Positions 8,283 to 54,604 of a stretch of DNA of 64,000 nucleotides are shown one piece after another. The number at the start of each line of letters is the position of its first letter. Position 1 is the first letter of the stretch. This DNA comes from Protoeuglena noctilucae (taxonomy: Eukaryota): positions 62,001-126,000 of the forward strand of contig OY253670.1 of the NCBI GenBank assembly GCA_958009085.1. Reading direction: 5' to 3'. The notes beneath the pieces are model-generated. The model did no database searches. It was not told the origin of the DNA and saw only the letters and a program-made list of their open reading frames with translations. Position numbers and translations under genes: made by a program.

Positions 8283-10168
8283 TCAGAGCTGCAGCATGTC
8301 GGCCCCCATGCCCCCGAACACGGCGCCCCCGCTGCGCTGCCCGTCAGCCCCCGCGATAAAGGGGTTGTTCTTGAGTTCCAGGTACAGCGTGAACATGACG
8401 TGGAGGCTCTCGATGGGGTTGGGACCCACTGCACGCAGCAGCAGAGGGACTCCGTGGCTGTGAGTGACTCCGGTGACCTAGCACACTTGTGGGTCATCCA
8501 AGGGACTGCAGCCGCCCCCATGTTCCTCGCCTGGGATGTCCAGCAGGGGACACATGACGCGCACCATGTCGGCCACGTCCATGGGGAGGTTGCCGTCCGG
8601 CATGGCCACCGCCCGCACCACCTCCTCCACCTGCAAGGGTTGAGGGGGCAAAGGTTTCTCTTCTTCTAAAGAATTGCCTTGCACAAGGCAGCCACCCAGG
8701 CGAACGAAAGCGCAGAAAGCGCAGCGTGGCGACTCACCTCGGGCGTCCACGCCTCCATCAGGCCCTCGACGTCGGGCATGCGGATCGAGTAGGCCACGTC
8801 GGCCGTGGGGCGCTTGCCGTGCAGGGCCTCGACGCTGGCCACCCAGTCCTGCAGCCGACGCGACAGCTCGGCGCGTGCCTCGGAGGCCCCCGTGCCCTTG
8901 GCCTGGACCTGCAGGGCAGCGACAGTGAGGACCGGTTGGCTACTGTGGTAACACGGCGCAGTTGAAGCACAAGGGGGCAGGCCGCAAGAGTGAATGGACT
9001 GCCGCTTTGCCCACCCCACCTCCGCGACTTCGCTGACGGTCGTCCCTCCCCCGGCCTCGTCGTCCACCACGGCCTTGCCCAACGCCTTGAGCTTGAGGGC
9101 CAGCACGCTCCGGTCCGACTGCTTCAGCGACGGCTCGTCCAGCACCTGCAGCCCCAGCAGGTCCTCCTTGCCGTCTGGGCGGGGCACTTTCAAAAACTCG
9201 TCCATGTCTCCCAACGATGGGACATACTCGGGCAGGAAGGGGCGCACGCGGGTCTGCGGGAGCGAGAGCACGGCACGCGTGAGCTAGCGTCGCGTGGAGG
9301 ACGGGGGACGGCACTCGTGGCTGCCCAGGCTCGCCTGCAAGTCGACCGTCTTGGGCTTATACTGCGTGATGAAGGCGAACAGCTGCTTGAGCTCAGGCGG
9401 GGCGCCGATGTTCGCGTAGTCCCGGGCTTGGTATTCCCCGGGAACCCCCTGTGATGCCACGGGTCCCACGGAGGCGTCCGCGGGCTGGCTGGCCGGCGCG
9501 CGGCTCGGCATCGCGGGCACGTGGGTTGGATGCGACGGGGCCGCGGGTTCCGCCATCCCGCGGTTGGAGTCGTCGTCTGCGGCCAGCAGACGAACGCGGT
9601 GGGATGTCAAGGCTCGGGGCGCGGACTCGGGAGGCCGCAGCGCTACAGGCGCGGCAACAGCTCAAAATCGCCCGCAGTGGCATTCCAGGCCCGCGCGCGC
9701 CCGGTGCGAGGCGTTCCTTCCCCGGGAGGACCCCGCACCTCCTTCGGACGCGTATCCGTGGTCCAGGTCCTCCATCTCGTGCGGCGGGGTATCGCCGCGG
9801 CCGTCGTTGCCCTTCCCCCGCGGCTGGTCCAGGAACCCGCTCTCCTGCACGGGCTGCGCGGTGGGACAGCGTCGTGGATGCGACCCACGGGCGATGAGAG
9901 CAGCAGCGCATCACAGTACGGGTCCCGCGCGGCGACGGGCGACGAGGGGCGGGGAGCCGTGCCCGCATGTCGACACATGAGCCAGTCGCGCCTCCTAGCG
10001 AAGATCCGCCGCGGCCGGGCCGGAGGTGCGCAACATCCGGGTGCCCAGATACCAGCTCCTCACCGTCCCCCGCAGGCTGGAGCTCTCCCCGAGGTCGAAC
10101 TCCTCGTCGTGGGGCTGGTTCTGCACGCTGCGCATGGTGCTGCGCAGCGTGTCCTGCATCGCCGCCAT
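8283..10168 (-). CDS. IFT46: Intraflagellar transport protein 46
   Basis: NQPHDEEFDL; DYANIGAPPELKQLFAFITQYKP; PFLPEYVPSLGDMDEFLKVPRPDGKEDLLGLQVLDEPSLKQSD; MPDVEGLMEAW; IESLHVMFTLYLELKNNP. Confidence 0.95.
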
Positions 10169-11220
10169 CCCTGCGCCCGCTCGTGGGCGCCACGCGCGCG
10201 AGCACGCCGAGGAAGCGGGGAGGCCGCGGGGGCTTGGACGCTGGATGCCAGCCCTGCAGAACCGTACTCTGTGGGACCCCGCCAAGCTTATCTGAAACGG
10301 CCACCGGCGTCCCCACCTGCGTCTTATGCGTAATTGCCGCATCGGGGTGCCACGGTCAACTCGTGAGGCGCCGGTCTGCCAGTAGGGTCGTTCCCCATCC
10401 ACCGTCGCTGGGCGTAAGGCCGACAATGCCCGTTCTGCCTCCAATGAGCCGAGGTCGTGTGATTGCATGAGATGGCGCAGACGGCCACCGACTGCCCGGT
10501 GAGTGTGCGAGCCCGCCTGCGGGTGGCGGGGCCGCCGATGCGCGTTTCAATCTTTGCACAGCGCATTTCGACATCTCATCTTTGGCGGGGTGGAATGCGT
10601 TTGCTCTGAGACGCCGGTTGCGCTCGTTCACGTGAAAGTGCCGACCCGCGACGCCGAAGAACGAATTACCGCTCCCCTGCCTGGCTCCCGAATGGCTCGC
10701 AAATGTATAATAGCAAGTGTCTCCACCCAATGCGAGATGCCCACGGGCGGCGTCAAAATCGGGGGCGTCTACCCCCCTACTGGTAACCGACCCCCCGCGC
10801 CCCGCGCCCATCCTTCGCAGGGTTCCGGGGCAGCAGCGACGATGAACGGCGAAGTGGGCTACGCGCCGCGCCTCCCTTTCCCCTGGGCGCTCCCTGCGAC
10901 CGAGGGCCCGGCGGGTGCGTGCCCGCGTCAGCTCGGCGACCCCTGCCGGCCGGTCGCGCCCTGTATCGGCCGCGGCTCCCGCCGATCGCGCCCTTTTTGT
11001 CCTCGTCGCCCCTGCAGGGCACCCCTTCTTTCTCGCCGCGCCCCTGGGTGGGGCCCCCCTCCCCTGCGCCGCCCCGCACCCCACCTGGGCCTGCCGGAGA
11101 CCTCCCGGCGGCGACTCCTCGGAAGCCGGGTCCTCCGAGCCCCGCGAATACCTCGCCGCGCCGTCCTGGCGTCTCCCCGCCGAACGCACCCCCCCACCCT
11201 GCGCCGGTGAGGCTGCAGTG

Positions 11221-12412
11221 ATGGGGACGCCCCATGTCATGGCCACCCTACCCCTCCCCACGCCCGCGCCGATCCACCCCGGCCCGCCCGCCCTCCCCGC
11301 AGCGCACGAGCCCTGCCTGGTGGAGGCCTTCAAGGACCTGTGCCAGTGCCAGGGCTTCTTCGGCCCCTGCACGTGCTGCGCGGGGCCGTGCTTCTCGCGC
11401 CACGACACGTCCCTGCGCCACTTCTGCCTCTCCTGCCGCCGGGCCTTCTGCCAGGGCTGCGCCGGCGCCCACGAGGGCCATGCCTCGGTGCAGATCCGCC
11501 GCAGCAGCTACAAGGACGTCGTCAACGCACGCGACCTGGCCGGACTCCTCGACGTGGCGCGCGTGCAGGGCTACGTCATCAACGGCAAGAAGGTCGTCTT
11601 CATCCACCACCGGTGAGCCACGAGCGAAGGGTGGGGGTGTATGCGCAGGGAGACAGTGGAAGGGCTGTGTCCAAGAGCTGCGTGTCGTGTTGTTGTCTCG
11701 CAGGCCCCAGGCGCGACCCCCCAAGGGCCGTCGGCCCCCGAGCTACTGCAGCGCGTGCCACCGCCAGCTCCTCGACGCCTCCGTCGCCTACTGGTGAGCG
11801 CCGCTGCTGCCGGGTGGCACGTCTCACACCTGTGCGCCCCAGCCGCCCCATGCCCCTCACGCCCCCCGCCGCCCCTCCCGCAGCTCCCTCCAATGCCTCA
11901 TGGTCGGCGAGCACGGCGCCGCGCCCCTCTGCGCCCCCCCCCCCCCCCTCCCCCTGCCCGCCCCGCCCCTGCCCCTCCCAGCCGCCCCCTCCCGCGATGA
12001 CGACTGCGCCCCCACCGCCCGCAACAGCCCGCGGCCCTCCCAGCCGGCGCCGAGCAGCCCCCACTCGTGCGGGGAGGCCCGCAGGTCGGACGGCACCTGG
12101 GCGTGCGGGTGCGAGGCGCCAGGCGTGGCAGAGGCGGGCGTGGTGCGGATGCGACCCCCGACCGACGCCGCCGCGGGGATGCCGTACGCCCCCTGCGCCT
12201 CCCTCCCCTCGCCCGGCCGCGGCTACCTCGCCGCATTCGGCACCCCCGCCTTTGGCCCCCTCGCCCCTGCTCTCTCGGTGCCACTGCCGGGGCTGGCCTG
12301 CGAGGGTGCGGGGTCGGGGGACCTCGCCCAGCGCTTCGGAGGGCTGCTGATCCCCGCGCACCACCGGGGCTGCAAACGCAAGGGGTCTCCTTGCCGGTCG
12401 AGCATGGAGTGA
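11221..12412 (+). CDS. PLATZ zinc-dependent transcription factor
   Basis: FCLSCRRAFCQGC...HASVQIRRSSYKDVV...VQGYVINGKKVVFI, CSACHRQLLD...YCSLQC, C-terminal KRKGSPCRS. Confidence 0.93.
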
Positions 12413-13622
12413 CCGTGACTGCCACCACGGCCGATGCCCCATGCGTGCCCCGTCGACCCCGCAGCCCTGTCCTGGAGCCCTGTCCTTGTGCCCATAGCCT
12501 GTGCACCGAGTCGCACCCCCTAGGTGCGTCCACCACCGCGCCGACGTCCTGCTTGCGTCCGGAGGCGCAGCCACCCCGGCTGCGTAACGCGCAGCACAGC
12601 AGGCGTCGGCGTGACAATAGCACGCGGCCCTAATACCCCCGGCGCTCATATCCCTCTCGCCGGCCTGCCCCGTCCCGACCGCGGCATCCCATGACAGATC
12701 CCACCCCATGAGTTTGGCCGCGCCATACCCAACCCTTCGTAGCCATCATCCCTTGCACGCACGGAGACGCCCTCCGTGGATTGCGGAGCAGTGCTGAGTT
12801 CTCCCTTCGCTGAGACTGTCGCCCCTGTCGTCGTCCTGGGGGCACTCCCCTGTGTTGCCCCGTGCTTTGCCTGACGACGCGACACGCACGCTGCGCAGAT
12901 GCGCCCCTTTCTGCTCGCCGCCCCCGGGGCTCGCGGCTGTACCTCTCGGGCCCAGTGCCCAGTGCCCCACGCCTAGCGCACCCTCAGCAAGCGGACGCCG
13001 GGCCTATTTCACCCGGCCGTACCCACGCCCATGCCGATGTCACGATGTCACGGGTCGCTTTTAAGAAGACTCTGCCAGGCCGCCATGATCGTAGATGACC
13101 TCCAGCCAGTCGATGTCCGTTTCGTTAGCCTCCATGGCCGCTGCGTTGTCGTTTTCCCGTGGCATGAGTCTGCCGCATGCGTGCAGTGCACCCCGCCTGT
13201 GAGTTCTTTGATCCCGCCCCTGGCAAGCTCCAGCACGACACGTCGGTGTCGCCCTAGCCGCGCGCGAGCCACGCGCACGGCCGTTTAAGAACGTAGCGCT
13301 CAGCGTCTGCCATTCAAGCGAATCACGCGACACTGCTTGGCACGCACACGCAGCAGCTACCGTCACTAATGCCTGGCATGGGTAGTGCACCCTGCCAGAT
13401 GACCGCTGATGTCGACCGCATACTAAGCCATGACTACTTCATGACCAGTAACCCGTGCCGTGCTTCAGGCCCTCGGATGGGGAAAGGATGCCCGTGTGGC
13501 TGGGAAGAGCGGTGCCTCGACGGACGGGGGCGGCACCCAAGCAGCGGCACTCCCCCGCCCAGCCCGCTCCCTCCACGCGCGCTCCACGCCGCCTGCCGCA
13601 CCTGCGCGGAACAAGATGCGTT

Positions 13623-16114
13623 TTAGACCTCACGCCTGCACGCTTGCAATGACCCAGCCACGCACCTCCGTGCCTCCCACGCACCTGCCGCGAACCCCGC
13701 CCACCCCCCCTCGCCCCCACCGGCCACCTCCACCCTTGGCGCCGACTCTCTGACGCCGCCCCACCGCTCCATCGCCCCCATCGCCATGCCATATCGATCT
13801 GCCTCTGCCGCCGCAGCCGCTGCCCCCCTCGCCGCCCCCCGCACTCTCTGCACCGCCTCTGCCGCCCGCCCCAGCGCCGCGTCAAAGTCATCGTCACCGC
13901 CGCGCCCCAGCAACGCGCGCTCGATCGTCCATGGCCCATCCCCGCTGTCCGCGCCCCACCCGCCCCGCGCCGGTGAGGCCACGCTCGCTGCCACCACGGC
14001 ACCCCACGTCGCATCGCCCGACCCCTCCCATCGCTGCCCCGCGGTCTCCGCCGGTGCCGGCGCCACTGCCATCGCCAGAGGTGGCGACGTGTTCACATGT
14101 GGCGATGTGCTCACATGCCCCCCATGTCTTCCGTGCCCCACGTGCCGTGAGAGGTCCTCCAGGTCCCGCAATGCCGCGTGGAAGGCGTGGCGGATGCGCT
14201 GGGCGGGGGACCCATCGTTGAAACCCTGCAGATGCAATGAGATACTCGCGAGGAAGTTATTGGCAATGTCTCAGTCTGCATTTCTACTAGCACAAGTGCT
14301 TCACTACATATGGTCATGGTCATGTCCGCTGCATTAACTAACAGCCGCACCTCTCGGCTGGGCGTCCATGCTGGCCCCTCCGCTCGCTCCAGCAGCGATT
14401 GCAGAGAGTCCGCCCCCGTCAGCGCCGCCGCGAGCGTGCCCGCGTACGCCTGCATAGGGCAGGCAACAGTATCAGTATCAGTATCGGTATCAACCAGTGT
14501 CAATATTAGCCAGCCCCATCCTTGCAGTCCCACCATGCCGCCACCACCACGCCCGCCAGCCCCGTCCCTCGCTCTCACCGTCGGGCGCACTTCCCCCACA
14601 TCGCGCTTGAGCTGACCCTTCACATCGTGCCCCACCACTCCCCCTGGCATGAGCCCCGATCCCAGCACGTCACGACCCCACGCCGCGCCCCCCTCCGCCC
14701 CCCTTACTGCCTGCCCCCGCACCCCGACCCACTCGTAAGCGCGGCTGCGCTCCTCGCGAGCCATCTCCTGCGCCGCCCGGCTCGTCAGCATGTCGCGGTA
14801 GGTGGGCAGAAGGGGCGGGTCCGCTAACGCAGGCGAGGGTGCTGGGTCTGCCACGCCCAAGTCCGCCATGGAAAGGGAAAGCGACGCGGACGCGTCACCG
14901 GCCAGGGCAGCCCGCCCCGACAGCTCCGCCACGCGCCGCGCCAGGTCAGGCGGTAGCATCGCCAGCGACGGAGAGGGCGGTGCGAGGGGCGGGGCGATGG
15001 GCGGGGCGATGGGCGGGGCATGCCCCACCAATCCTCTCCACTGCCGCGGCGGTGTGCCGATTGCACTCTCCCGTGACGCCCGCGCCAGCTGAGCCTCCAG
15101 AGCCGCGCCGCTGCCAGCCCCGTCCCACCCGTCGCCCTCCCTCGCCCCCGACACCCCGGCTGCTGCTGGCGATCCCCCCACACCCTTCCCGACCCCAGCC
15201 CCCCCCGTCCCCTTCATTGGCGACAGTAATTTCCACCACTGCAGCGCGTGCCTATCCAGCACCCCCAGCGCCTCTAGCCTCGCCAAGTCCTCATCCTCAT
15301 CTGCCCCTTCCCCACCACCCTCCGTATCCCCCCTGGGTCCCGGCTCACTCCCCGCCATCGTTGCCTTGTCAGCACTGCTCCCCGCCGCTGCGACCCCGTC
15401 CTCCCCCGTGCTCGTCCCCACGCTCCTCCTACGCTCCTCTGCCACTCCACTCCCCGTCACCATTACTGACACCACATCCACCCCCGCACCCACACCCTCG
15501 CCTGCACCCGCCCCTGCCTTGTGCTGCTCCTGCACATCCACTCTCGCACCCTCGCTCGCCTCTGCCTTGCGATGCCCCCCTGAGTGCCCCTCGACACCCT
15601 TGCCCGCCCCCACCTCTGTCCCCGGCCCATGAGTGTGGGCGATAGCTTGTGCTGCCCGCCGCATCAAGCTCACCAGCTCACCCGGCCGCGACCATCTCGC
15701 CCCGGGGGGGGTAGCCATGGTAGCAGTGGCACCCCCCGCATGCACCCGGTCTGCGCCAGTCCCACCCCCGCCTCCCAACCCCCCATGCCCCGTAGTCACA
15801 CCAACGGGCACGGCAGCAACGGCCCCTCCCCGCCCCTCCACGCCAGCCCCTGCGCCCTCGCCAAGCACCCGCGCGCTCCCTCGTCCCGTCGTGGCTGTCT
15901 TTGCGAAGTGGTACTTGCGGCCATAGGGCGTCTCCACCACATCTGTCGGGTCCACCGGCCCCGCCTTGGTCGGCGTCATCGCAGGCGCCCCGTTGGGCCC
16001 GGCAGGCGCGAGAGCGAGCGGCGGGGGACGGCTCCGGGCAAGGCCGTGCGGCGCGGTGGGGGTGGTAGCAATGGTGCTGGTGCTGTGGAGGAAGGGCAGC
16101 GTGAGGGGCGGCAC
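13623..16114 (-). CDS. Hypothetical Gly/Ala-rich protein, multi-exon
   Basis: 667-aa open frame with protein-like segments (LDRHALQWWKLLSP, LLPTYRDMLT) and plausible splice sites near 14660, 14450, 14347 and 14228; no recognisable domain; ends uncertain. Confidence 0.5.
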
Positions 16115-24345: not shown

Positions 24346-31917
<7,572 letters not shown>

Positions 31918-36246: not shown

Positions 36247-38231
36247 ATGGACGAGGTGCGGACCACTCCATGGCTTGGCATTTCGCCAGACCTAGTGGTC
36301 GTGGCGTGTCGACGGTCGGGGCCGCGACAGAGCTACACACGAGGCGTAAACGAATTTTCATCGCTGATCACACACCGTTGTGCCCTCAGGGGACCGAGAA
36401 ACCCTCAACAAAGCGCGGACCCGGGGCCCTCGCGGGGCGCGCCGGCACCACGGGCGGCCCCGCGGCGCGGGAGCGGGTCCTCCAGGGCGCTGGATGGCTC
36501 GGTCAAGACCATCAACTCGCTCATATCCCTGGGTGACATGTTCGGCCCCGAGTCCGGCGATTCGCGGCGCGAAGAGGGCGGCGAGGGTGCGGGTCGTCGT
36601 GGCGAGGCACGCGACGCCTCCGGTCCCGCGGGGCCGCGGACGCCGGCGGAAGCAGACGATGCGGATGAGATGAGCGAGGAGGAGGCGCTGCGGGGGAGAT
36701 GGATACGCGTCCGCACCTTCTCCAAGGCGAGCGAAATGCCTTGCTCCACTGCACGGTCATCGCCCATGCCCCGCTGGTCCTCCAGCTCACCCACTCCACT
36801 GCGCCTGATCCCCCGCAGTGCTCCTGCACCGTCACGGACCGCCCCTCCGTCCCCGGCTCCCCCCACCACCCCGGCCGCCCCCTGGTCGACTACCTCATGC
36901 TTCCCATTGAGGATTACAACCTCCTCGAGCCCTCCTGGATCCGCCGTGCCGGCCATTGGCAGGATGCCGACGACGCCGCACGCCCGGGCGCAGTCGCGCA
37001 GCCGGGACAGGCCCCCTCGGGTGGCGGGGTGTCACGTACTGCCCCCGCCCCATCGGACGCGCCTCCCTCCGAGGGTCTCTTAAACGCCATACGCGCCCTT
37101 GGCCCCCACGCCCGCGACGCCTTCGTGCTCTCCGTCCCCGTCGATGACCTCACGGGCCTCCCTGTGCGGCCCCGGATGCTGGTGCGGGTAGACCCGGAGC
37201 CGTCCGCCTCGCGGGTGTGTTTTGAGAGCCTGTACATGGAGCTGGGCAACAAGGACCTCGACGGCGCGCTGCACTTCGCCATGAGGGCCACGCTGTTCCG
37301 GTGAGGGCGGGGGGAGCCGGGTGGCGTGCTGGGAGGGCTTGAGCGGGGGGGGGGACGCGCAGTGAACGAAGCATGGCGTGTGTATGTGCGCAGGCGCGGG
37401 CAGCGGGCGGCGCGGAGGCGGCTGCAGGCTCTGCTGCGGCGGGGGAGGCGGGGGCCTGAGGCGGAGGTCGGCGCTGAGGTGGGTGGTGAGGTCGGTGGTG
37501 AGGGGGAGGAGGACAGCAGCGAGGGGGAGGGGGCGGAAGGAGGGGAGAGCGCGGGGGAGAGCGTGGCTGAGGCGGGGGCTGGGCTGAGGCAGGGGCCCGC
37601 CGGGGATGTGGTGGTGGCACATGGGACGCTGGGGGAGGCGAGGGCGGGGAGGGGCGGGGAGGAGCGGAGTGGGTGGAGACGCATCGCCCCTTGGGCATGG
37701 GTGCGGAGGGCGCGGGGGGCCGGGGCTGCAGAGTCACCGCAACGAGGGCAGGCGTGGGGAGGGGAGGTGGGGCGTGGAGCAGTGGAGGAGAAGAGTGTGA
37801 CTGCGGGTGATGAGGCGGCGGATGGGGGGCGTGGGGCACAGGCGGGGTCTGCAAGCGATGCCAGCGCGCCAGCGTCCCCGTCGTCTCTTTTACCACCGAC
37901 CAAGGCCCATGCTGCGCCGCGCGCCGGGGCGGACGCCGGCCGGGACTCTGCGGCGGTGCTGGGCTCCCGACTGTCGATAGAGCTGGAGCTCTTTGTGCCG
38001 CACCCCTACTCGCGCGTGCCGGGTCTGGTGCTGTCGGCTGCCATCCGCGTGGTGCTGGAGGCGGTCGTGGGGCAGCTGTACCCGAGATTCCTTGACCTTT
38101 TGGCCCGCGATTATGCGGCGTGGGCCACCGGGGGCGTGCGCGACATGCCGGGGATGCCGAGGGCGCAAGTGGCGAGGGAGGCGGCGAGGAGGACGGGGGG
38201 AGGCGAGGGGGCGGCCGAGGGCGAGGGGTAG
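36247..38231 (+). CDS. DUF1997-family protein (START/Bet v1-like) with Gly/Glu-rich insertion
   Basis: LVDYLMLPIEDYNLLEPSWIRR; LELFVPHPYSRVP...VLEAVVGQLYPRFLDLLARDYAAWA; start uncertain. Confidence 0.72.
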
Positions 38232-38428: not shown

Positions 38429-40089
38429 TCACATCTCTGCGGCGATGTGCAGCTTGGCCAGCGACTGCTTGGCGAAGGCGTGGACCTGCTCGGCGTACGT
38501 GACCATCTGGGCGCTGATGAGGTAGTTGTCGAGCATGCTGGGCGGCTCCACGGGCTTGACGCCCGGCAGCACGTCCGTCTCGGGCAGGGGGTCCTCCCCA
38601 CGGGCGCGCCGCTCGGCGTTCTCCTGCCGCCGCTTGGCCCGCGCCGCCTCCACCTGCGCCTGCTGCCACTGCAGCGTCTTGTGGTACTTGGTCACCTTGG
38701 TCTGCTCGGCCACCATGTCGTCGCACAGCTCGGACGAGTGGCCCAGGTTGCGGCACAGGAAGGGGCTCACGGACAGGTCCAGGGCAGAGGGGGACACGTC
38801 CTGCAAGGAACCCTGGGCCCTGCGGGGAGGAGGGAGGCCGAGGGTGGTGCTTGGGGAGGCAGGGGCTACATCAGCTGAAAGGGTCGTGGTCTACGCAGCT
38901 GCTGGTGCCGTCTACTTGTCCATTCTATCTATCATCATACACAATGCCAGAGAAAGCGAACCCGCATCGCATGTGTTCCCAGCTGCATCCCATGGCTGTG
39001 CCCCTCACCGCAGCTCGGCCGTGAGGGCGTGGACGAGGGGGTTGTTGACGACCTCCATGGGGATCTCCGTGAAGATGTCGGACCAGGCGACGCGGGCCTC
39101 GAGGAGGCGCTCGAAGGTGAGGGCAGAGGCGCCCTTCTTGAGCAGCTGCGGGCACGGGGCGCATGCGATGAACGTTCCTTCGTATGACGTCGCGTCGCAC
39201 AACGATCGACGGTGATAACAAGAACACCCTGTGCTGGTTGGCTCGCCTCGAGGACATTCTCGGCGACAGTGACGGCGCGGAGGGGCAGGTGGCCGAGGGC
39301 GAGGAGGGGGTGGTCATAGACGATCACCACGCAACGGCGCACGGCCGGCACCACCTCGCAGAAGAGCTTGACTAACTCCTGCGTCTGCCAGCCGTTGTCC
39401 CCCGCGGACTGGTACCACCCCGCCGTGTAGCTGTCCACGTTGTTCTCCCTGAACGGAGGGAAAAAGGCAAGCAACGTGAAACCATGAAATTGCAAGCCAG
39501 ACCCAACGGGCGCCCCGCGCATGCTCTGCCGCGACTGCCTGTGACTCACTTCAAGCACCGCATCATGCTGATGTGGTAATCCCCGCCGTCGTCGTCGTCC
39601 TGGGCGTCCGCGCTGGGGAAGGGGAACGCGTCCGTCACCTCCAGGACCTCCCCGGCGTCCATGCCCAGCAGCTGGCCCGTCACGGTCGAGGGGTAGAAGC
39701 CCTTGCAGTGCTGTATGATGCGCAGCGCCGCCAGGCCGCTCAGGCGCACGCGCGAGATGGGCGGCTCCTGCGAGGGCAGCAGGGGGAGTGGGAGGCCGCT
39801 GGGCGTGCGGAGCGCACAACGGAGGGGCTGCCGAGCTGGATGAAAATGACATGAGAGCATGGGGTACGACGAGTCCCGCAGAACGACGCGCTGGAAGCTG
39901 GGGGCGCGCCTCGGGCACGGCGTGCCAGCCGCAGGCAACCGCGGGCCGGGCAGGGCTGGGCGGGAACCGCCCGGCGGCCCAGCCGGTCTGTCGACTGTCT
40001 CTGCTCCGATGGAGCAACGAGGTCTCGTTGGAAGACGCTACAGGGATTCAGGGCCTCACCTCCGAGGCGGCCGTCATCGCGCCCGCCAT
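38429..40089 (-). CDS. EIF3H: Eukaryotic translation initiation factor 3 subunit H (MPN domain)
   Basis: VRLSGLAALRIIQHC...VTGQLLGMD...LEVTDAFPFP, MMRCLKENNVDSYTAGWYQS, ENAERRARGEDPLPE. Confidence 0.93.
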
Positions 40090-40512: not shown

Positions 40513-42939
<2,427 letters not shown>

Positions 42940-43253
42940 GACAAGTCGTCGTTGGATTTGATGACATGCGTTGAATGGTTGGGTGGATGTGCAGGGACAG
43001 CAGCATTCACGCATGGTTCAAGTGTCCTTGGAACAGCTCGGCTCGCATTCCTAGCATGCACGCACTTCAACAGATTCCAATGCACGGCCTCCTGTGCCTG
43101 CCGACACTGCCCTCCGCATGTCCACTGCCCCATGGGCCCCTCCCTTGCTGCTCAGCATGAGATCAGAGAACACCAAACCACAGCGTATACGCGTTCCCCT
43201 TCCCCACTACTCCTTCGAAGCGCAGTGCGCCTGTGCGCTCGTAGTGCACCATC

Positions 43254-46200
43254 TCACCCCACGCTCTGCACCCACGGCTCCAGCATCTGGGTCAGCTCCT
43301 GTATCGTGGGGCGCTTGCGGGGGTCCGCGTCCAGGCATTGCGTCAGGATCAACCTGTGGAGATGGCAGGGGGGTCCTCGTTGTTAACCCACTCGCACCGC
43401 TTCGCCCTGTGCGAACTCCTCGCTGTCAAAGACTTGCTGCTGCCATCACCTGAGAGCGTCTGGCACCTCCTCCAGGTGCCGGTGCTGCAGCGCCCTGCCT
43501 TTGTGGTGCTCGACGGAAATCACGTGCGGACCGATGCCTTCGAAGGGTCGCTTGCCCGTGGCCAGGTGGGCCAGGGTAGCTGCCACCGCATACACGTCCC
43601 AAGCCTTGTCTGCAGCACAAAGTGGCAGGCTAGGGTCAATTAAGCGCGCAGTCAGACACTGTGAGCACTTTTTCGACGGAGCAGCGAGGGCCTCGCCTGG
43701 CTGCGATGGGTCATTGTTGGCCATCTGATCCATGGGGGCGTAGGCATACGTCATGCCCATGGGAAGCTGCACGTCCGCAGCCATGCCCTGCGAATTGCAA
43801 ACGAGGACACAGGACCCTGCAGCACGGCACCATGTGACAGCTAGGCGTGTCACATGTCCCGACACCCTCGTGCAACCACGCAGCCGCCTCACCTTGGCCG
43901 AGCCGAAGTCACACAGCACCACCGTCCCGTTCTCCCGCACGAGGCAGTTGGCGGGCTTGATATCGCAGTGCACGATGCCGCAAGCGTGCAGCTCCGCAAC
44001 AGCAGCGCAGATGTCCTGGGCAGCCATGGCCAGCTCTGCTTGCGTCACTGGCCCGTCCCTCTCCCGCAGCATGTCCGTCAGCGACCCCGTGCACCGCTCC
44101 ATTACCAGGAGAAGCTTGCCATCCTTCCTTGCTGCCCCATGCGCCTTGCACACCATCTTACACACCGCGGACAGCCGCTTGGACAGCACGACCTCTGCTA
44201 GATGAGCGTCGTTCTCCAGCATGATCTTGACGGCCACTGGCTCCACCTTGCCGCCCGTCGTGAGCGTCGCCTCCCTCACTAAGTACTGACCCCTTCCCAG
44301 TTGCGGACCAAGGCTGGAGAGGACCGACGGCTCCGGCAGCGTCACCCTGCGCAACAGCTCCTGCCTCTGCACCTCTGTCAGCGTCACCTCCCCCCTCGCA
44401 ATGGTCCTCAGCGTGTCCACCACTGTCGCTGAGTCCGCCAGCTCCAGCGCAGCAACGAGGCTCCCAGGTATGGTCGACGTGGACGCGTGGTCGGACGGCG
44501 GACCGGGACCGACCTGCTCCTGCTGCCTGCAAAGGGTGCAGGTACAAATGGTCGTATCACGGCCTTGCAAGACGTATGCCGTGCACTTCTGAACGCAAGC
44601 GGTGGCCCTTGCCTGACGCTCTTCACCCACGGCTCCAGCATCTGGGTCAGCTCCTGTATCGTGGGGCGCTTGCGGGGGTCCGCGTCCAGGCATTGCACCA
44701 GGATCGGCCTGCGCGGAGAATGGTGCAGTGGTTAGAGCCATCCTCGCTCCTGCTTTGCAATCTCACGACATGACTGGCCATGGCCGCCCTCACCTGAGAG
44801 CGCCTGGCACCTCGTCCAGGTGCCGTTGCTGCAGCGCCCTACCGCTGACGTGCTCGACGGCAATCAAGTTTGCGTTGATGCTCTCGAAAGGCCTCTTGCC
44901 CGTGGCCAGATGCGCCAGGGTGGCTCCCACGGCGTACACGTCCCACGACGTCTGCAGTTAAGGGTTGGAAGCCAACTATGCTAGCAATGCCAGGGACCCT
45001 GACAATGCGAGACATGTTACTGAGCAGCCAGCACCTGGCTTTGTGGTCTGGGTGGCGGCCATCTGGTCCAACGGAGCGTAGGCCACCGTCAATGATTGTG
45101 GAGGCTGAACATCGACCGACGTCCCCTGAGCTTAACATATAGGAACTCACTGTGTCTGGCACCGTGTGACGCATACATGCACCTCCATTTGCTCACACAG
45201 CCACGCAGCCGTCCCACCTTGGCAGAGCCAAAGCTGCCCAGCACCACTGTTCCGTCCTTTCTCACAAAGGAGTTTGCTGGCTTGATGTCGCAGTGCACGA
45301 TGCCGCAAGCGTGCAGCTCAGCAACGGCAGCGCAGATGTCCTGGGCAGCCCTGGCCAGCTCTCCTTGCGTCAGCAATTCGCCTCTCTCAAGCACGTCCCC
45401 CAGCGACCCCTTGCACCGCTCCATCACCATCAGCAGCTTGTCATCCCTTACCACCGCCCCGTGTGTTCGGCAAACATGTTTGCAGTGGTGTGACGCCCAC
45501 ATGGAGACTGCTACCTCGAAGCGGGTGTTATCCTTGTCCAGCATGACCTTGACGGCCACCGGATCCACCTTGCTGCCTGTCGTGAGCGATGCCTCGGACA
45601 CTGTGTACCGAGCCCTTCCGAGCTCACGACCAAGACCGGAGAGGCTTTCCTCGGGCAGCATCATGTGGTCTCTGACATGCTGCAGACCCTCCTCAGTCAG
45701 CGTCGCCACCTCCGGTGCAGCAGGTTGCGCGGCCAACCTGAGAAAGCCAGTGGTTGGAGGAAGTGCTGTACGGGTCTATGCATGCGGCCCCGTGCCAGAC
45801 ACTGCGTTGCGAGAATTCCTCGCCTGACATCCTCCTCCCACCGCCGCATCTCGTCCACCAGCACCGCGGCCGTCGGACGCCCTGCAGGGTTCTTGTCCAG
45901 GCACCGCGCCAGGATGGGCCTGCAGATGCGGGGCGTTTCAAAGCAAGCTCGCAACGACGCGCTCCGCACCCTCGCAGCCCACGCCAGGCCGTCTGTGCAG
46001 GCTGCCTGGTCGTCTGTGCAACAGTTTGCCACCCTCACCGTATGCGCTTTGGGACCTCGTCCAGGTGCATGTGCTGCATGGCCCTGTCGTATGCGTGCTC
46101 GACCGCAATCATGTTCTTGGCGACCGACTCAAAGGGCATCTTGCCCGTGGCCAGGTGCACGAGGGTGGCACCCACGGACCACACGTCCCACCGCGGATCT

Positions 46201-47291
46201 GCGCAGGGCGACGAGCAATGAGAACAGATCAGCACCTCCGCAGACGACGTTAATGATACTATATACCGCCACTTCCCCGGCGGCCTGGCAAACTCACCTG
46301 GCCTGACCCCTCGCATGGCGCTGAGCTGATCAAGGGAGGCATAGGGCGCAGTGTGCGTCAACGTGCTCTGCGCTGTACGGTCCATCGGCTGCGGACAGCG
46401 ACGCACACCGATGTCATGCAGCGACGGAGCCCGCTACCCAACAACCATGTATCCCGCCCGCCCATCCACACCCCTCCCTTGACATGCACTTGCCTTGGAC
46501 CCGCCAAAGTCCGCCAGGATCACCGTGCCGTCCTCCCGCACCAGGCAGTTCGCGGGCTTGATGTCGCAATGCACCACCCCGCACTCGTGCAGCTCCGCCA
46601 GGCTCGCGCACACGTCCCGCGCCACCCGCGCCAGCTCCGCCGTGGGCAGCCCCGCCCCCTCCAGCTCCCGCAGCCGCCCCTCCAGCGACCCCGCGCACCG
46701 CTCCATCACCAGCCACACCTCCCCGCCCCGCCTCACGCACCCGTACACCTTGCACGCCCGCGGGCACTGCAGCGACGCCCGCATGGCCGTCCCCACCTCC
46801 CGCGCCATGCGCCGCGCGTTGTTGACCTGCAGTGCCTTGACCGCCACCGGCACCGCCGTCGTCTCCCCCGCCGGGCCGCGCACCGTCAGCGTCGCCGTCA
46901 GCACCCGCGCGCCCCCGTCCTCCACCCCGATGCGCTCCCCCGAAGACAGGTTGGACAGGTCGCCCTCCGGCAGCAGCACCGCGCGGCCCAGCCATGCCGC
47001 CGCGTCCTCGGCCGAGGCGGTCGGCAACGACTCCACGTAGCTCGACGCCACCTCCGACAGCGCCGCGGTCGCCTCCGCCGGGAGATCGTGGCCCATCCAG
47101 CATCGCCGTGCGCCCTCCCCGCCCTCCTCTCCCCGCCGGCCCTCCCACGTCAGCCACCCCGCCGTGCACGCCTCGCATGCGATGCACTCGCACGGCAGCC
47201 GCTTCAGCACGCGGCCGGCCTCCGCCGCGTCGGCGCCCCGCGCGCACAAAATGCACGCCGCATCGAGCTCGCCCTCCGCGAGACCCATCAT
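43254..47291 (-). CDS. RING-like finger + three tandem Ser/Thr kinase domains (middle one a predicted pseudokinase)
   Basis: N-terminal C-x2-C-x17-C-x-C-x2-C-x2-C-x21-C-x3-H; three sets of VAVK / LVMERC / HCDIKPAN with DFG, SFG and DFG; same exon layout in each unit; units joined in frame by GC-AG introns. Confidence 0.8.
43269..44696. repeat. 73-bp identical direct repeat (43269-43341 and 44624-44696) in the last exons of kinase units 3 and 2
   Basis: CACCCACGGCTCCAGCATCTGG...CCAGGCATTGC seen at both positions. Confidence 0.95.
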
Positions 47292-47858
47292 GGCTCCCGG
47301 GCGTCGAGAGCGGCCGCGTCAGCGTCACGGACGGCCGATCATTGACGGCGGGTTTCGATTCGAGGACGACACGCGCTCCCCGTGCGCAGGCGCCTCTGGA
47401 CACTCGTGCAGAGAAGGATGGAATGCGTGGTTCTCCGGGCCGCCCGATGTTCCACAGCACCTAACTAGCGAGTCAGAGACTGCGATATGCGCCATCTGGG
47501 GGCACCGTCCGCCCCATGTGCGCAGAGACGGGCCGCGCGTGCAGGTCAACGGCGGCGCCAGTGGGCATGGCAGGGCTTGTGCGCGTTCCACGACTTCTTG
47601 GGTGCACGATTGCTGACTGTCACGGCGCATCGTGCATACTGGACGGTGCGGGAGGTACGCGCGGTGCCATCAGAGCCGTCCGCGGGGCGCAAACGTAGAC
47701 GCTTCCCACAACCGTGCTCTCGCACGCTCGCGGCCTGTCGCGACACCGTTCGCGGCCGCCGCTGTGCGCTTTCTGTGGCATTCGCATACGTGTTCAAAGA
47801 GCGTGTCCAAGCTTTATCTCTACCGCTGCCTGCGATCGCGGCAGCAGGGTGCCCCGCA

Positions 47859-50800
47859 TCACTGGGGCGGAACCGATGCCTCTCGCGCCTCTTGCGCCTC
47901 CTCGCTCCCCGCGTCTGCGTCCCCTGACCCCTGGCCCGGCGCAGGCTGAGCCGACGGCCGCTGCCGGCCCACCATGACACCGACCCGCGCCGTGCCGGGG
48001 GCGACGTCTTCTGATGCGACCCCTGCGCGGCTGTTCATCGTCGAAGGGTCCAAGCGGCCCCCGCCTGCGCGCTGCCTGCCCACTCCCACGCCCTGGACAG
48101 CGGCGAGCGCGGGCGCTTTTCGCGACGGACCTGCTTGCCCAGGTTTGCCCCCATCAACTGACTGCGTGGCAGGGGCGGGAATGGACGTGTGAAGGTCATG
48201 GCGTGGGACAAACGTGCTGCCATCGCCAGGGAAAGAGCAAAGCGACCTGGCCAATGCCATTCGGCACGAACAGCATCTCTCTCCTCCCACGCTTTCCCCC
48301 AACCACTCATGTCGCACTATCGGCCTGCCCACACCAGCCCCGCCGCCCTCACCTGCCCCCCCTCTGGCTCCACCATCATGGCCCTCCGCTGCCTCCTCAG
48401 TCTCTTCTTGGTATCCTCCCAGTCGCCGCCCACCACAAACGACTCCAGCTGCCCCGCCACCCGCGTCGGCACCCGCGCCTTGATCCACGTCCCCTCCGCA
48501 CGGTAGTCCTCCACCTGAATGCTCCCTGCAGCAAACACGGGTGTTTGACTAAGAGAATATGCGACGTGTGCGTGCAAGTCGCCACGCCTGGGCCATTTGG
48601 GACCCCACGTGTGAGGACATGTGGGCCAGACTGCGCTGTGGTCACCCGGTCCCCTCAGTGTAGTGCGGTATCACCTGACACTCCCCGCCACCCCCAGTCC
48701 CTCACCCGCTTCGTGCAGCTCTGCCACCACGTCCCCCCGGTCGTAGGGCACCAGCATCTCGCAGTCCACGGTGCTGTCATTAAGGCGCTCCTCCACGGCC
48801 GCCATCAGCGCGGGCAGGTTGGTGCCCTGGAGGCAGAGCACGAAGCACGATGGGATTTGTGGGTGGATGTTCTGGCCGTGACACACTCAGGGCAGCGCCG
48901 CTGAGCAGTCTAGCACGAGGGGTGTATGCCGACATCAAGCGTGGCAGGGTGTGGCAGAGTGACCGTCCATGTGATGACTCGCCTGTGATGCGCTGACGGC
49001 CACCACGTCCTCCCTTCCCTTGGCCACCTCCATCACGGCGTCAGGGTCCGAGCACTGGTCCACCTGCGACGTGCAACACATGCATGCATGGTCAGTCACA
49101 TCTACCCAAACCCAGCCATCCGTCATCGAGTGATGGATGCCCCGGCTGTGCCCCATCCCTCGCCTTGTTCCACACGGTCAGCACGGGTATGCCCTCCACC
49201 TCCAGCTGGCCCAGCACCCCCATGACCGCCTGTGTCTGGGCGGCTGCCATGGGGGATGATACGTCCACCACGTGCTGAGGGGAGCGAAGCGGTGGGTGGG
49301 AAGGTCGATTGCTATGTAGAAACGAGCGTTGACAGGATGACAGCAACCTCCCTTACCCTCCCTCGCTCCATCTCACCAGCAGCAGGTCGCTCATCTCCCT
49401 CACCTCCACCCACTCCCACTCACCAGCAGCAGGTCGCTCTCCTCGACTTCCTCGAGCGTGGCGCGGAAGCTCGCCACCAGCTGCGTCGGCAGCTTCTGGA
49501 TGAAGCCCACCGTGTCTGTCACCAGCGCGACCTTGCCGGACGGGAGGGGCACGCGGCGCGTGGTGGGGTCCAGGGTGGCAAACAGCATGTCCTGGGCAAA
49601 CACGGCCTCAGAGCCACTGCGGGTGATTTGAAAGACAAAGATGGATGAGGAAGCTCCACGGCACGCAGGCACAGCGACACCAGTCACTGCGAGGGTATCT
49701 ATCCCAGCGCGCTGCAAAGCCAGGTCTACTCGCCTGAGGGCGTTGAGGAGCGTCGACTTGCCCGCGTTGGTGTACCCTACGAGCGCCACCACGGGCATGC
49801 CCTTCTCCTCCCTCCGCCGCCGGTGCTGCTTACGGTGCTGCCGGACCAGGTCCAACTCCTTGCGCAGCCCAGACATCTGCGGGCCGGGCATGGGCATTGT
49901 AGTTGCACTCGCGAGGCGGCTCGCCAGTGCACGCGCGCATGCAGCCGACCAATCTAGCATAGATACCATGTGTAAAGTCACGGACTCGTGACCATGGTTT
50001 CTGACACCTCAGTCGTTGCTACTCGCCTTGGACTTGATGATCCGACGGTCCACCTCGATCTGCTTCTCTCCCATGCCCTTGACCTGACCCGCGCCACTGC
50101 AGAGACGATAGAAATGGAGTTATTCTGCATGCGCTTGCTTTCCATGAAACGCCGGCCTGTGCGTGGTAGCCAAGGGACAGCCCCATCTGCATGGCACGCA
50201 GCCACCCTCGCCTCTGTCGCTCCAGGTGCGTCCACATGCGCGTGAGTCGCGGCAGCTGGTACTCCATCTGCGCCAACTCCACCTGCGCGGCGCAGAGAGC
50301 GCAGAGAGGCTCACGAACAACGACAGAAGGACCGAGTACCGCCACGTCCCAACCTGCAACTGGCATTCCCACGTCGGGACTGGGGCCCAGGAGCAAGAGC
50401 TTCTAGCAAATCTCCTCCTATCTAGCCCCCTCCATTCTGCCCTCCTCGCCTGCAGCTGCCCCTCCCTCGTGGCCGCCCTCTGGCTGAAGATGTCGAGGAT
50501 GAGGGCCGTGCGGTCGCACACCCGCACGTCGTCCCCCAGCTCCTTCTCCAGGCTCCGCAGCTGCGCGGGGGACAGCTCGTCATCGAAAATGACCGTCTCG
50601 ATGCCCAGTGCATCCACTTGGGTGGCAATCTCCACCACCTTGCCCGAGCCAATGTACGTGCGGGGGTTGGGGCGCTCCAGGACCTGGTATGTCGACCCGG
50701 CCACCTGTGCAGGCGCGAAAGAGCAAAGGGGTGTTTGCTATCGTAAGACCGCTTTGCTACCGCAAGACCGCCGTACCAAACAGAGGCCTTTGTCACCCGC

Positions 50801-52030: not shown

Positions 52031-53357
52031 ATGGTTGCGCCGTGCCAGGAGCAGTGCGTGGAGGACGAGGCGAGGCCGCGTCGGGGCTGGGCTGACCTCG
52101 CCCTGCTCCCGCACTGCATGTGAGCCATCATGAGGCACATTTACAGCGTGGCGCATCCTACTTTGCTTTCCAGGCCCGCCGGGCGTTCGACGCGGGGGAC
52201 CTGCCCACCGCCATCGCTTGCTACTCGTCGCTGATTGATGTCTACAATGGCAACGCCAGCGAAGGCGCGCCAGAACATGAGGAGAAGCTGGCGAAGTGGC
52301 TCACGAACCGCAGCATGCTTCGAGGGAGGGCGGGGGACCTGCAGGGCTCCCTCGCAGATGCCGAGGCAGCGCTGCGGCTCGACCCCGACAGGCTCAAGGC
52401 TCACTACAGGTACGCAAAGCTGCGTCTGCGCGCGGCCATGGGCGAGCGCTACCCGCTGCAGCCGGCCAACGGGGGCCTCACCTGTGTCGCCCTGCGCAGG
52501 CGAGCGAGCGCTCTGCTGGCCCTGGGCCGCGAAGCAGAGGCGCGGGAGGCGGTCGCGGAGGCTGAGTCCCGCGGCCTGGACACGTCCGGCATCGCATCGG
52601 CTCTCGCCTCAATCGGTCGCCGTGGGTTCCGAGAGGGCCGCATCACGGGGGAGCTGCCCTCCACTCGAGAGTGCTCCACAAGCCAGGCCACCGAGAGCCA
52701 CGAAACAGGAACCGCGCGGTTTTCTCGCCCTGCCGCTGGGCTCACGCCCGGCTGCTCGCCCCCCTTGGGCTGGGCGATGGGTGCCTGGACCGAGCGCGGC
52801 CCTGGTCGCTGGCGTGCGGGCAGGGTGGACTTCGCCGCGATTCTGCGCGAACGGGTGCCGGACGACGCGTGCCGACCGGTCCGGGGAGTGGGAGCGGGGC
52901 TCGGGAAGCAGCCAGCCGCGGGCGGGGACGGCCACGTGGATTTCACACCCGCGGCGGTCAGGGGGATGGAGGGTTCCGAGATGTCCAAGCATCTTGCGAT
53001 CCTTGGCTTGAGCGTCGAGTCTCTGCAGCACTTGGAAGGCGCCCAGCGACAGGCCATGGTGAGTAGCAGGGGCGTTGCTGTTGCCACAGCGCTGCTGGGC
53101 TGCAAGCGATGCCGCATTCCTCACAACCCATGCAGGTGCGGCGCGCCTTCTTGAAGAGTGCGGCGCTCGTCCATCCCGACAAGGGCGGCACCGAGGCTGC
53201 CTTCCATGCCGCGAGGGCAGCCTACGACTTTCTTGTAAAGGCAAGGGGGGCTTGCTCCTGGAGTGGCTGGGGCCCCCCAACGCGCAACAACATGCAGCAT
53301 GCTTAAGCTCTCGTAACGTTTGCGCCACTTTTGTCGCAGGCGCTCACGAGGCCATGA
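52031..53357 (+). CDS. TPR repeats + C-terminal J-domain co-chaperone
   Basis: AIACYSSLI...NRS...SLADAEAALRLDPDRLKAHYRRASAL (TPRs); VRRAFLKSAALVHPDKGGTEAAF (HPD motif). Confidence 0.82.

Positions 53358-53557: not shown

Positions 53558-54604
<1,047 letters not shown>

Follow-up and report, generated by a model that had tools for sequence, protein, structure and literature searches.

A stretch of 64,000 nucleotides from Protoeuglena noctilucae (assembly GCA_958009085.1, contig OY253670.1, positions 62,001 to 126,000), referred to here as the window, contains a gene that had been described, in a preliminary description made from the letters alone, as a RING-like motif followed by three kinase units in tandem. 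The gene lies on the minus strand, runs from an ATG at 47291 to a TGA at 43254 (window coordinates), and comprises 12 exons, four for each of three kinase units, with a Cys-rich domain at the N-terminus of the encoded protein. Our preferred interpretation, to which a rough probability of 0.55 was assigned, is that of an expressed, lineage-restricted gene from a marine, GC-rich and probably algal eukaryote, encoding a RING-kinase fusion with a tripled kinase module, whose main product is 622 aa in length and for which a 1002-aa form is at best minor.

Gene structure and transcript evidence

The three units were found to share the same four-exon layout, as had been proposed. The long first exon of each unit extends to the DFG position and is followed by a second exon of 91 nt in all three units, a third exon of 160, 158 and 160 nt, and a fourth exon of 96, 96 and 100 nt in units 1, 2 and 3, respectively. 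GC donors occur at four of the 11 introns (introns 1, 4, 8 and 10), the remainder being GT, in a window with a GC content of 62-72%. GC-AG introns are also frequent in Emiliania huxleyi, where they were reported at 56% of 241 junctions (PMC4028052, excerpt).

The gene model was compared over positions 43100-47500 with Logan contigs from four marine metatranscriptome runs of a single study (designated here as X1 through to X4). Of 12 listed runs, eight contain this stretch, its share of words being 0.22-0.48 in the four marine metatranscriptomes and 0.89-0.94 in four runs of a coded organism. RNA support was obtained for 11 of 11 introns, ten as joints at the modelled positions (allowing for the shifts given below) and intron 1 by means of two loose ends, the letters of which are those of the exon ends on either side. 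Upstream of the coding region the contigs extend to 47500 or beyond, and downstream of it to 43118 or beyond. The 5' untranslated region covers at least 47292..47500, with contigs colinear over 47225-47470 and 47351-47500, and carries an in-frame upstream ORF of five codons (ATG at 47342, closed by a TGA), while the 3' untranslated region is represented by record 12 of X3, which continues colinear to 43118.

Exon 1 (46494..47291; this and all following exons are on the minus strand) encodes the RING-type domain, a helical linker and the N-lobe of kinase 1 up to the DFG motif (aa 1-266), and its end, with the GC donor AAG/GCAAGT, is marked by RNA loose ends at 46390 and 46494. Exon 2 (46298..46388, 91 nt), placed by these loose ends and by the joint 46198->46298, encodes the kinase 1 activation segment, in which YASLDQ replaces APE. 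The C-lobe (WDVWSVG...) is encoded by exon 3 (46039..46198, 160 nt), which is bounded by the same joint and by 45918->46038, and kinase 1 is completed by exon 4 (45824..45919, 96 nt) with the GC donor CAG/GCGAGG, which is connected to unit 2 through the joint 45736->45823 in X1.

In unit 2, exon 5 (45218..45737) encodes a linker and the N-lobe up to SFG (codons 45235-45227). Exon 6, in the form seen in RNA (45035..45125, 91 nt; joints 45124->45217 and 44951->45035), encodes the activation segment with YAPLDQ, exon 7 (44794..44951, 158 nt) the C-lobe, and exon 8 (44613..44708, 96 nt) the end of kinase 2, with the GC donor CAG/GCAAGG; here the joint 44523->44610 can be shifted to 44526/44613.

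Unit 3 opens with exon 9 (43893..44526), which encodes a long linker and the N-lobe up to DFG and is followed by the joint 43786->43892 in four of four runs. Exon 10 (43697..43787, 91 nt) carries the activation segment with YAPMDQ, and its joint 43609->43697 was observed in three of four runs with the plus-strand ends CT..GC, making the GC donor of intron 10 explicit in RNA. The C-lobe is encoded by exon 11 (43450..43609, 160 nt), with joints in three of four runs, and the end of kinase 3 by exon 12 (43254..43353, 100 nt), which closes with the TGA at 43256-43254. This stop codon is located inside a donor-like site, GGG/GTGAGA (43254-43262, minus strand), that is homologous to the GC donors of exons 4 and 8, and the terminal unit ends there as if the donor simply had no partner.

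Both unit junctions were thus located exactly where the preliminary description had placed them (45824/45737 and 44613/44526), with GC donors, in frame across the junction and with RNA joints, and a single transcript rather than one transcript per unit was supported by the contigs. The most informative joint is that between units 2 and 3 (44526/44613; X1, depth 16.6), the 87-nt side of which includes an 11-nt tail specific to exon 8. Separate expression of unit 3, alone or together with unit 2, from its own promoter as a stand-alone kinase is very doubtful. The summed contig depth is indeed higher over unit 3 and the contigs of X2 and X3 mostly cover this unit (depth cannot rank parts of a gene), and a 261-aa ORF from the protein database, P0016, derives from a 907-nt contig restricted to unit 3. 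However, the unit 2-specific tail of exon 8 is spliced to exon 9, and there is no Met ahead of the unit 3 kinase domain within exon 9. Poly-A libraries are, moreover, usually 3'-biased, which also weighs against separate expression.

Exon 8 (44624-44696) and exon 12 (43269-43341) are identical over 73 nt, and since the surrounding introns are merely 55-58% alike, gene conversion between units 2 and 3 is likely from these sequences. The same repeat makes RNA contig assembly ambiguous. One contig, record 9 of X2 (43261-44529), presents exons in the order 11, 12, 9, 10, 11 and goes back by 1269 positions; it probably represents an assembly-graph path through the 73-nt repeat, an additional unit in some strain or a circular RNA being less likely.

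The RING-type domain, the kinase units and their relatives

The core of the N-terminal domain (47088..47255, minus strand) reads C13-x2-C16-x17-C34-x-C36-x2-C39-x2-C42-x3-W46-x17-C64-x3-H68, and the eight-ligand motif noted earlier ahead of unit 1 was recovered as C13, C16, C34, C36, C39, C42, C64 and H68. The RING consensus is C-x2-C-x(9-39)-C-x(1-3)-H/C-x(2-3)-C/H-x2-C-x(4-48)-C-x2-C. As a single sequence, the N-terminus yielded non-significant phmmer matches in the PDB (best E 0.55), seven of ten of which were RING E3 ubiquitin ligases (E3s). An alignment (A1) was considered of nine N-termini, drawn from the exon 1 relatives at E<=1e-30 and their cluster mates. In A1, no variation occurs at C13, C16, C34, C42 and C64, a C or an H occupies positions 36 and 68 in nine of nine members, C39 is present in six of nine, and the x3 spacing of the last ligand pair is kept in eight of nine.

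Seven of the nine A1 members matched zf-RING_2 at E<=1 (best 1.3e-6), and the homologues P0038 and P0184 exceeded the Pfam gathering cut-off (28.5 and 28.0 bits, respectively, versus 27.3). When compared with solved structures, the A1 profile retrieved RNF4 (1.3e-8), the TRIM32 RING (1.6e-6, with an alignment extending through the final pair of ligands) and RNF126 (1.4e-5) among 78 matches at E<=1; of the 60 matches listed, all but Roquin-1 and two ATRX entries are named RING or RING E3. AlphaFold (AF2) modelling with A1 reached a pLDDT of 76.2 and a pTM of 0.69, whereas exon 1 as a single sequence gave a pLDDT of 36.9 and no usable model. Among 48,161 chains compared by VIA-align, RNF4 was the best match (Z 5.7, rmsd 2.2, 61 aligned), followed by TRIM2 (Z 5.3) and TRIM25 (Z 5.1), and nearly all of the 50 rows shown were RING or U-box entries, some of these rows representing large complexes. 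The top rows obtained by Foldseek were likewise RING or U-box proteins, e.g. RNF165 (TM 0.72 on target, rmsd 1.7).

The RING-H2/C3HC4 E3s, such as RNF4, TRIM32 and RNF165/ARK2C, share with this domain the eight ligand positions and the cross-brace spacing, as well as a Pro before ligand 3, a Trp four residues past ligand 6 and a hydrophobic residue inside the first CxxC. Leu15, Pro33 and Trp46 align with the Ile, Pro and Trp of ARK2C, which we take to be E2-contacting positions. In contrast to those E3s, the domain has Cys instead of His at ligands 4 and 5 and closes with C-x3-H where they have C-x2-C, and an Asp follows the last ligand, the position that in canonical RING E3s is occupied by the Arg/Lys 'linchpin'. 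Because the family profile and the modelled fold both match RING domains, the N-terminus is, on sequence and model grounds, a diverged RING with the RING cross-brace fold and predicted ligase activity, and the profile and AlphaFold comparisons agree with the RING-type assignment made in the preliminary description.

Pkinase (PF00069) was identified on exon 1 (E 2.5e-18, 66.8 bits), exon 5 (E 2.4e-18, 66.9 bits) and exon 9 (E 1.4e-21, 77.5 bits), in each case above the cut-off of 31.7 bits, and in alignments the small exons correspond to kinase C-lobes. Identity between units 2 and 3 is 64% over 283 aa (E 2.5e-121), while unit 1 is 48-50% identical to each. No further copy of the kinase unit was detected by tblastn in the window, so that the paralog count suggested earlier stands at three paralogous units, without additional copies in these 64 kb. 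Kinase catalysis involves the VAIK Lys, the alpha-C Glu, the HxD Asp, an Asn and the DFG Asp. Units 1 and 3 retain all five (VAVK at 149 and 772, HCDIKPAN at 241 and 861, and DFG at 261 and 881, respectively, plus the alpha-C Glu), whereas unit 2 carries SFG at 550 in place of DFG. All three units contain HCDIKPAN, and are accordingly of the non-RD type, with degenerate Gly loops and with LDQ, LDQ and MDQ in the place of APE; the SFG, Gly-loop and APE features had all been pointed out previously. Among solved structures, unit 3 matches TAO3, LIMK1 and MST1 best (E ~1e-10), no plant receptor kinase was present among the 60 listed solved relatives of this unit, and the protein atlas returned generic kinase clusters only.

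A search of exon 1 against 1.84 billion representatives produced 112,496 matches at E<=1e-3 and six at E<=1e-30. None of these six is named, and no plant kinase is among them. In cluster look-ups (19 clusters), all relatives are nameless proteins from ENA, JGI or Logan assemblies. Uninterrupted ORFs composed of a RING and one kinase were found in P0163 (383 aa), P0184 (427 aa) and P0022 (568 aa), the last of these being hydrophobic at its C-terminus. P0187, P0193 and P0195 are 86-90% identical to exon 1 and represent alleles or orthologues.

In a maximum-likelihood tree of 14 N-lobe segments, from which near-identical cluster mates and nothing else were left out, units 2 and 3 form a single clade with P0197 and P0200 (100/98), within which units 2 and 3 are sisters (88/85), and the nine RING-attached units are all positioned on the opposite side. 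As units 2 and 3 group with P0197 and P0200, the second, linker-type unit predates the lineage and the third unit is a later internal duplication. DFG is kept by the sister unit 3 and by the outgroups P0197 and P0200, SFG being confined to unit 2, and unit 2 is, judging by its sequence, a decaying pseudokinase that has lost the Mg-binding Asp as well as 2 nt of its third exon. Equal longest-contig sizes hint that a P0196/P0187 allele is followed by a P0197/P0018-type unit. The previously proposed independence from plant tandem kinases is in line with the tree, in which units 2 and 3 arise by duplication inside a nameless marine family, and with the close matches, which include no plant kinase.

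Searches for longer homologues returned, for exon 1, nine generic kinases (four named bacterial, best E 2e-10); for exon 9, four matches with no RNA-derived multi-unit ORF, the sole named plant match being 27% identical; and for profile A1, six matches, none of which was new. P0024, P0185 and P0026, which gave multi-stretch matches, were rejected as family members, since they are HRD-type multi-kinase proteins lacking a RING at ~35% identity. Among viral contigs, exon 1 matched nine giant-virus-type loci over the kinase core only (query residues >=143, 29-60% identity, short stretches) and without a RING; nothing in these contigs points to a viral relative.

Reading frame of the middle unit and predicted products

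The preliminary description assumed one continuous frame through the units, and this did not hold. A 391-nt contig (record 3 of X1) joins exon 5, the 91-nt exon 6, the 158-nt exon 7 and exon 8 without gaps relative to the genome. The exon alignment shows that exon 7 lacks 2 nt near its 5' end when compared with the third exons of its paralogs, and exons 5 to 8 total 865 nt, which is not divisible by three. With a 158-nt exon 7 following a 91-nt exon 6, units 1 to 3 are therefore not in one frame. Translation of this RNA-supported splice form yields 585 in-frame residues, ending with Pro585 ahead of the exon 6/7 junction, and 37 out-of-frame residues, after which a TAG (44839..44841, minus strand) at codon 623 terminates a product of 622 aa with one complete and one incomplete kinase domain. 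The tandem kinase-pseudokinase-kinase architecture that had been proposed thus stands at the level of the gene and the transcript, but is not supported as a single polypeptide. More generally, an exon-by-exon reading can conceal a 2-nt frame defect of this kind.

The frame would be restored by a candidate alternative GT donor 14 nt downstream (TCA/GTAACA, 45015..45023, minus strand), with which exon 6 would end at 45021, measure 105 nt and open a 1002-aa frame across all three units. This donor lacks the -1 G that is present in 11 of 11 used donors and the +5 G that is present in most, and its use was not seen in the contigs, the sole contig across the site using 45035. No alternative exon 7 acceptor and no GC donor shifted by 2 nt was found that would restore the frame and be compatible with the 83-nt skip in the RNA. 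An early gene model, in which an exon 6 acceptor at 45104 was combined with the 45021 donor and the frame was kept, was discarded, as RNA shows 45125..45035. Among metagenome contigs, no orthologous locus was found for exon 5, the 79 loci retrieved being generic kinases matched via HCDIKPAN (<=51% identity, short stretches), and an exact look-up of two window ORFs covering exon 7 showed these to be absent from the protein collection.

It is conceivable, but unlikely, that the 1002-aa RING-kinase-SFG pseudokinase-kinase is the functional product, made via the 45021 donor or in strains without the 2-nt loss, and that it acts like a cereal tandem kinase protein (TKP) as a sensor with a pseudokinase decoy wired to a ubiquitin ligase. 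The exact restoration of the frame by the downstream donor, the intact unit 3 and the RNA joint between units 2 and 3 are in agreement with such a product, as is a dN/dS of ~0.4 in the kinase frame of exons 7 and 11. All three units are, furthermore, non-RD, as is at least one kinase domain in each of the four structurally characterised TKPs RPG1, WTK1, WTK2 and WTK3 (PMC8761531, excerpt), and allelic variants of exon 1 occur both in RNA contigs (X3 and X4) and among database proteins (P0010, P0187 and P0193). Set against this are the observed use of 45035, the poor donor context at 45021 and the lack of any resemblance to plant TKP kinases among the relatives listed, of which TAO3, LIMK1 and MST1 are the best solved ones.

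An opposite and rather improbable alternative regards units 2 and 3 as functionless, the remains of a tandem duplication that is decaying into an untranslated 3' region, and takes the functional product to be only the RING with kinase 1, for example in a 423- or 622-aa form. The complete homologues are of the RING plus one-kinase type (such as P0163), and unit 2 has neither its DFG nor its frame. Record 5 of X1 is colinear across intron 4, indicative of intron retention, upon which the frame would stop at codon 424. Long open frames are, in addition, favoured by the base composition, 86 stop-to-stop ORFs of at least 120 aa being present in 18 kb at 66% GC. However, no catalytic motif is missing from unit 3, whose four exons are correctly phased and confirmed by RNA, P0197 and P0200 have conserved a linker-type second unit with an intact DFG, dN/dS is below 1, and the 73-nt identity of exons 8 and 12 speaks for ongoing gene conversion rather than free decay.

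Under the preferred interpretation of an expressed RING-kinase fusion with a mainly 622-aa product, the gene would encode a cytosolic protein in which a diverged E3 ubiquitin-ligase domain of the RING type is fused to a non-RD (HCD) Ser/Thr-type kinase. The ancestral state would have been a RING with one kinase, to which a linker-type unit, common to relatives, was added earlier and then duplicated again in the present lineage. The three units would be spliced into one transcript while the middle unit decays. The 622-aa product would comprise the RING, an intact kinase 1, the N-lobe and activation segment of pseudokinase 2 and 37 out-of-frame residues, the form retaining intron 4 would comprise 423 aa with the RING and one kinase, and the 1002-aa three-kinase protein would be minor at best, arising via the weak alternative donor. 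A coupling similar to that of KEG may then be envisaged, in which kinase 1 phosphorylates itself or a bound substrate, the RING recruits an E2, and ubiquitin is placed on the phosphorylated target or on the protein itself, with the extra kinase-like modules possibly serving as docking or regulatory surfaces wherever they are translated.

Several observations weigh against this interpretation. As regards the transcript, the RNA data are assembled contigs rather than raw reads, from which rare isoforms would be dropped and by which single molecules are not proven, and the joint between units 1 and 2 (45737/45824, X1) is weak because one of its sides measures just 25 nt. Concerning the RING, seven spacings fit the consensus, but the last pair is C64-x3-H68 instead of C-x2-C. 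The protein's own N-terminus (80 and 110 aa) matched zero Pfam families at E<=10, Foldseek returned no match at E<=0.001 (E-values >=0.28), and the structural scores are modest by themselves (Z up to 5.7), as expected of a 60-residue domain. E3 activity, kinase activity and the coupling between them are, moreover, inferred. Regarding the frame, unit 3 remains open and retains all of its kinase motifs and splice sites although it lies past the stop. The dN/dS check suggested in the preliminary description gave 0.38 for unit 2 exon 7 (in the kinase frame) versus unit 3 exon 11, based on just 13 synonymous and 17 non-synonymous differences, and 0.39 for the N-lobe exons. As the former value is no higher than the latter, these sequences argue for translation of the unit 2 C-lobe and the whole of unit 3 until recently, or even now via an isoform that contigs would drop. 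The frame loss is accordingly either recent or bypassed by an unseen isoform.

Comparison with known systems and surroundings of the gene

Land plants are the main known source both of RING-kinase fusions, exemplified by KEG (Keep on Going) of Arabidopsis, and of tandem kinase-pseudokinase proteins. The present gene brings the two architectures together, in a family that lacks annotation and was found in assemblies of marine eukaryotes only. The path of duplication may be traced from a RING with one kinase through the addition of a linker-type unit to the duplication of that unit, and the pseudokinase appears to have been caught while degenerating, having lost DFG first and the frame second. 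If a frame-restoring isoform exists, the gene would encode a rare three-kinase E3 ligase and be a candidate for convergent kinase-decoy sensing in algae; if not, it would be a signalling gene of an ordinary kind, specific to its lineage and with one duplication in decay.

KEG likewise has an N-terminal RING directly before the kinase in one cytosolic protein, with repeats of the ankyrin and HERC2-like types after it, and its self-ubiquitination is regulated by phosphorylation (PMC5385374, excerpt). Whereas KEG continues after its single kinase with these repeats, the present gene ends after the kinase units with neither. No KEG-type extension was found, the gene ending at 43254 with a 3' untranslated region in RNA and Pfam searches of exons 1, 5 and 9 returning kinase-type families only. 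Specific sequence kinship to KEG was not seen either, the close relatives being solely nameless marine-metagenome proteins, and the KEG relationship raised in the preliminary description was consequently not borne out, given the lack of an ankyrin or HERC2-like part.

The cereal TKPs (Rpg1, WTK1/Yr15, WTK2/Sr60, WTK3/Pm24 and Sr62) share with this gene the tandem duplication, the degeneration of one copy to a pseudokinase and the non-RD loops. They differ in being plant proteins of receptor-like-kinase ancestry with proven resistance, most of them without a RING, whereas the present gene has three units and a RING, with a frame-shifted middle unit. TKPs are polyphyletic, having arisen by duplication or fusion (PMC8761531, excerpt), and kinase-domain homologues of Sr62, though not the tandem form, extend to green and red algae (PMC8956640, excerpt). 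No algal tandem kinase was described in the papers that a literature search on tandem kinases and pseudokinases in algae retrieved.

Clusters of base differences were observed in RNA contigs at 46719-46776 and 47109-47265 in X4 and X3, several of them in or beside the RING. Together with the exon 1 variants in the database (P0010, P0187 and the mosaic P0193), these clusters point to co-occurring marine strains or alleles. In its boldest form, an account of the locus would be that of an innate-immunity gene which evolves fast, is structurally polymorphic, belongs to a marine alga that forms blooms, and combines a RING E3, a non-RD kinase and one or two decoy-like modules. Splice choice (retention of intron 4, and 45035 versus 45021) would switch between 423-, 622- and 1002-aa forms, and the gene would be a convergent non-plant counterpart of the cereal tandem-kinase receptors directed against viral or bacterial effectors. 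This account is regarded as highly speculative.

A KRR1-like small-subunit processome gene (40701-42960, plus strand) is located next to the kinase gene, with KH_KRR1_2nd at E 4.4e-37, a first KH domain at E 5.4e-05 and a Lys/Arg-rich tail. The two genes are convergent, tail to tail, with their 3' ends ~150-200 nt apart. Other features include an HflX-like GTPase gene with at least two exons (49403-50737, minus strand; GTP-bdg_N E 2.1e-25, MMR_HSR1 E 1.5e-11), a plant-type 2Fe-2S ferredoxin domain (53561-54262, minus strand; E 1.3e-17, 63.9 bits) and a TPR protein at the cut-off (52096-53151, plus strand). Weak matches were obtained to DUF1997 (37305-38228, plus strand; 24 bits, below the cut-off) and to JAB/MPN (39549-40037, minus strand; 22.1 bits, just below the cut-off). 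These annotations suggest that the region is gene-dense nuclear DNA of a plastid-bearing eukaryote. The occurrence in marine metatranscriptomes, the high GC content, the GC-AG introns and the ferredoxin and DUF1997 neighbours would fit a photosynthetic protist of the sea, possibly a haptophyte. Rfam gave zero matches in the window at the gathering threshold. GC skew, which is otherwise balanced across the window, is strongly negative at 10001-16000 and 26001-28000 (to -0.39 in 26-28 kb), and these tracts may correspond to a long C-rich coding or repeat tract.

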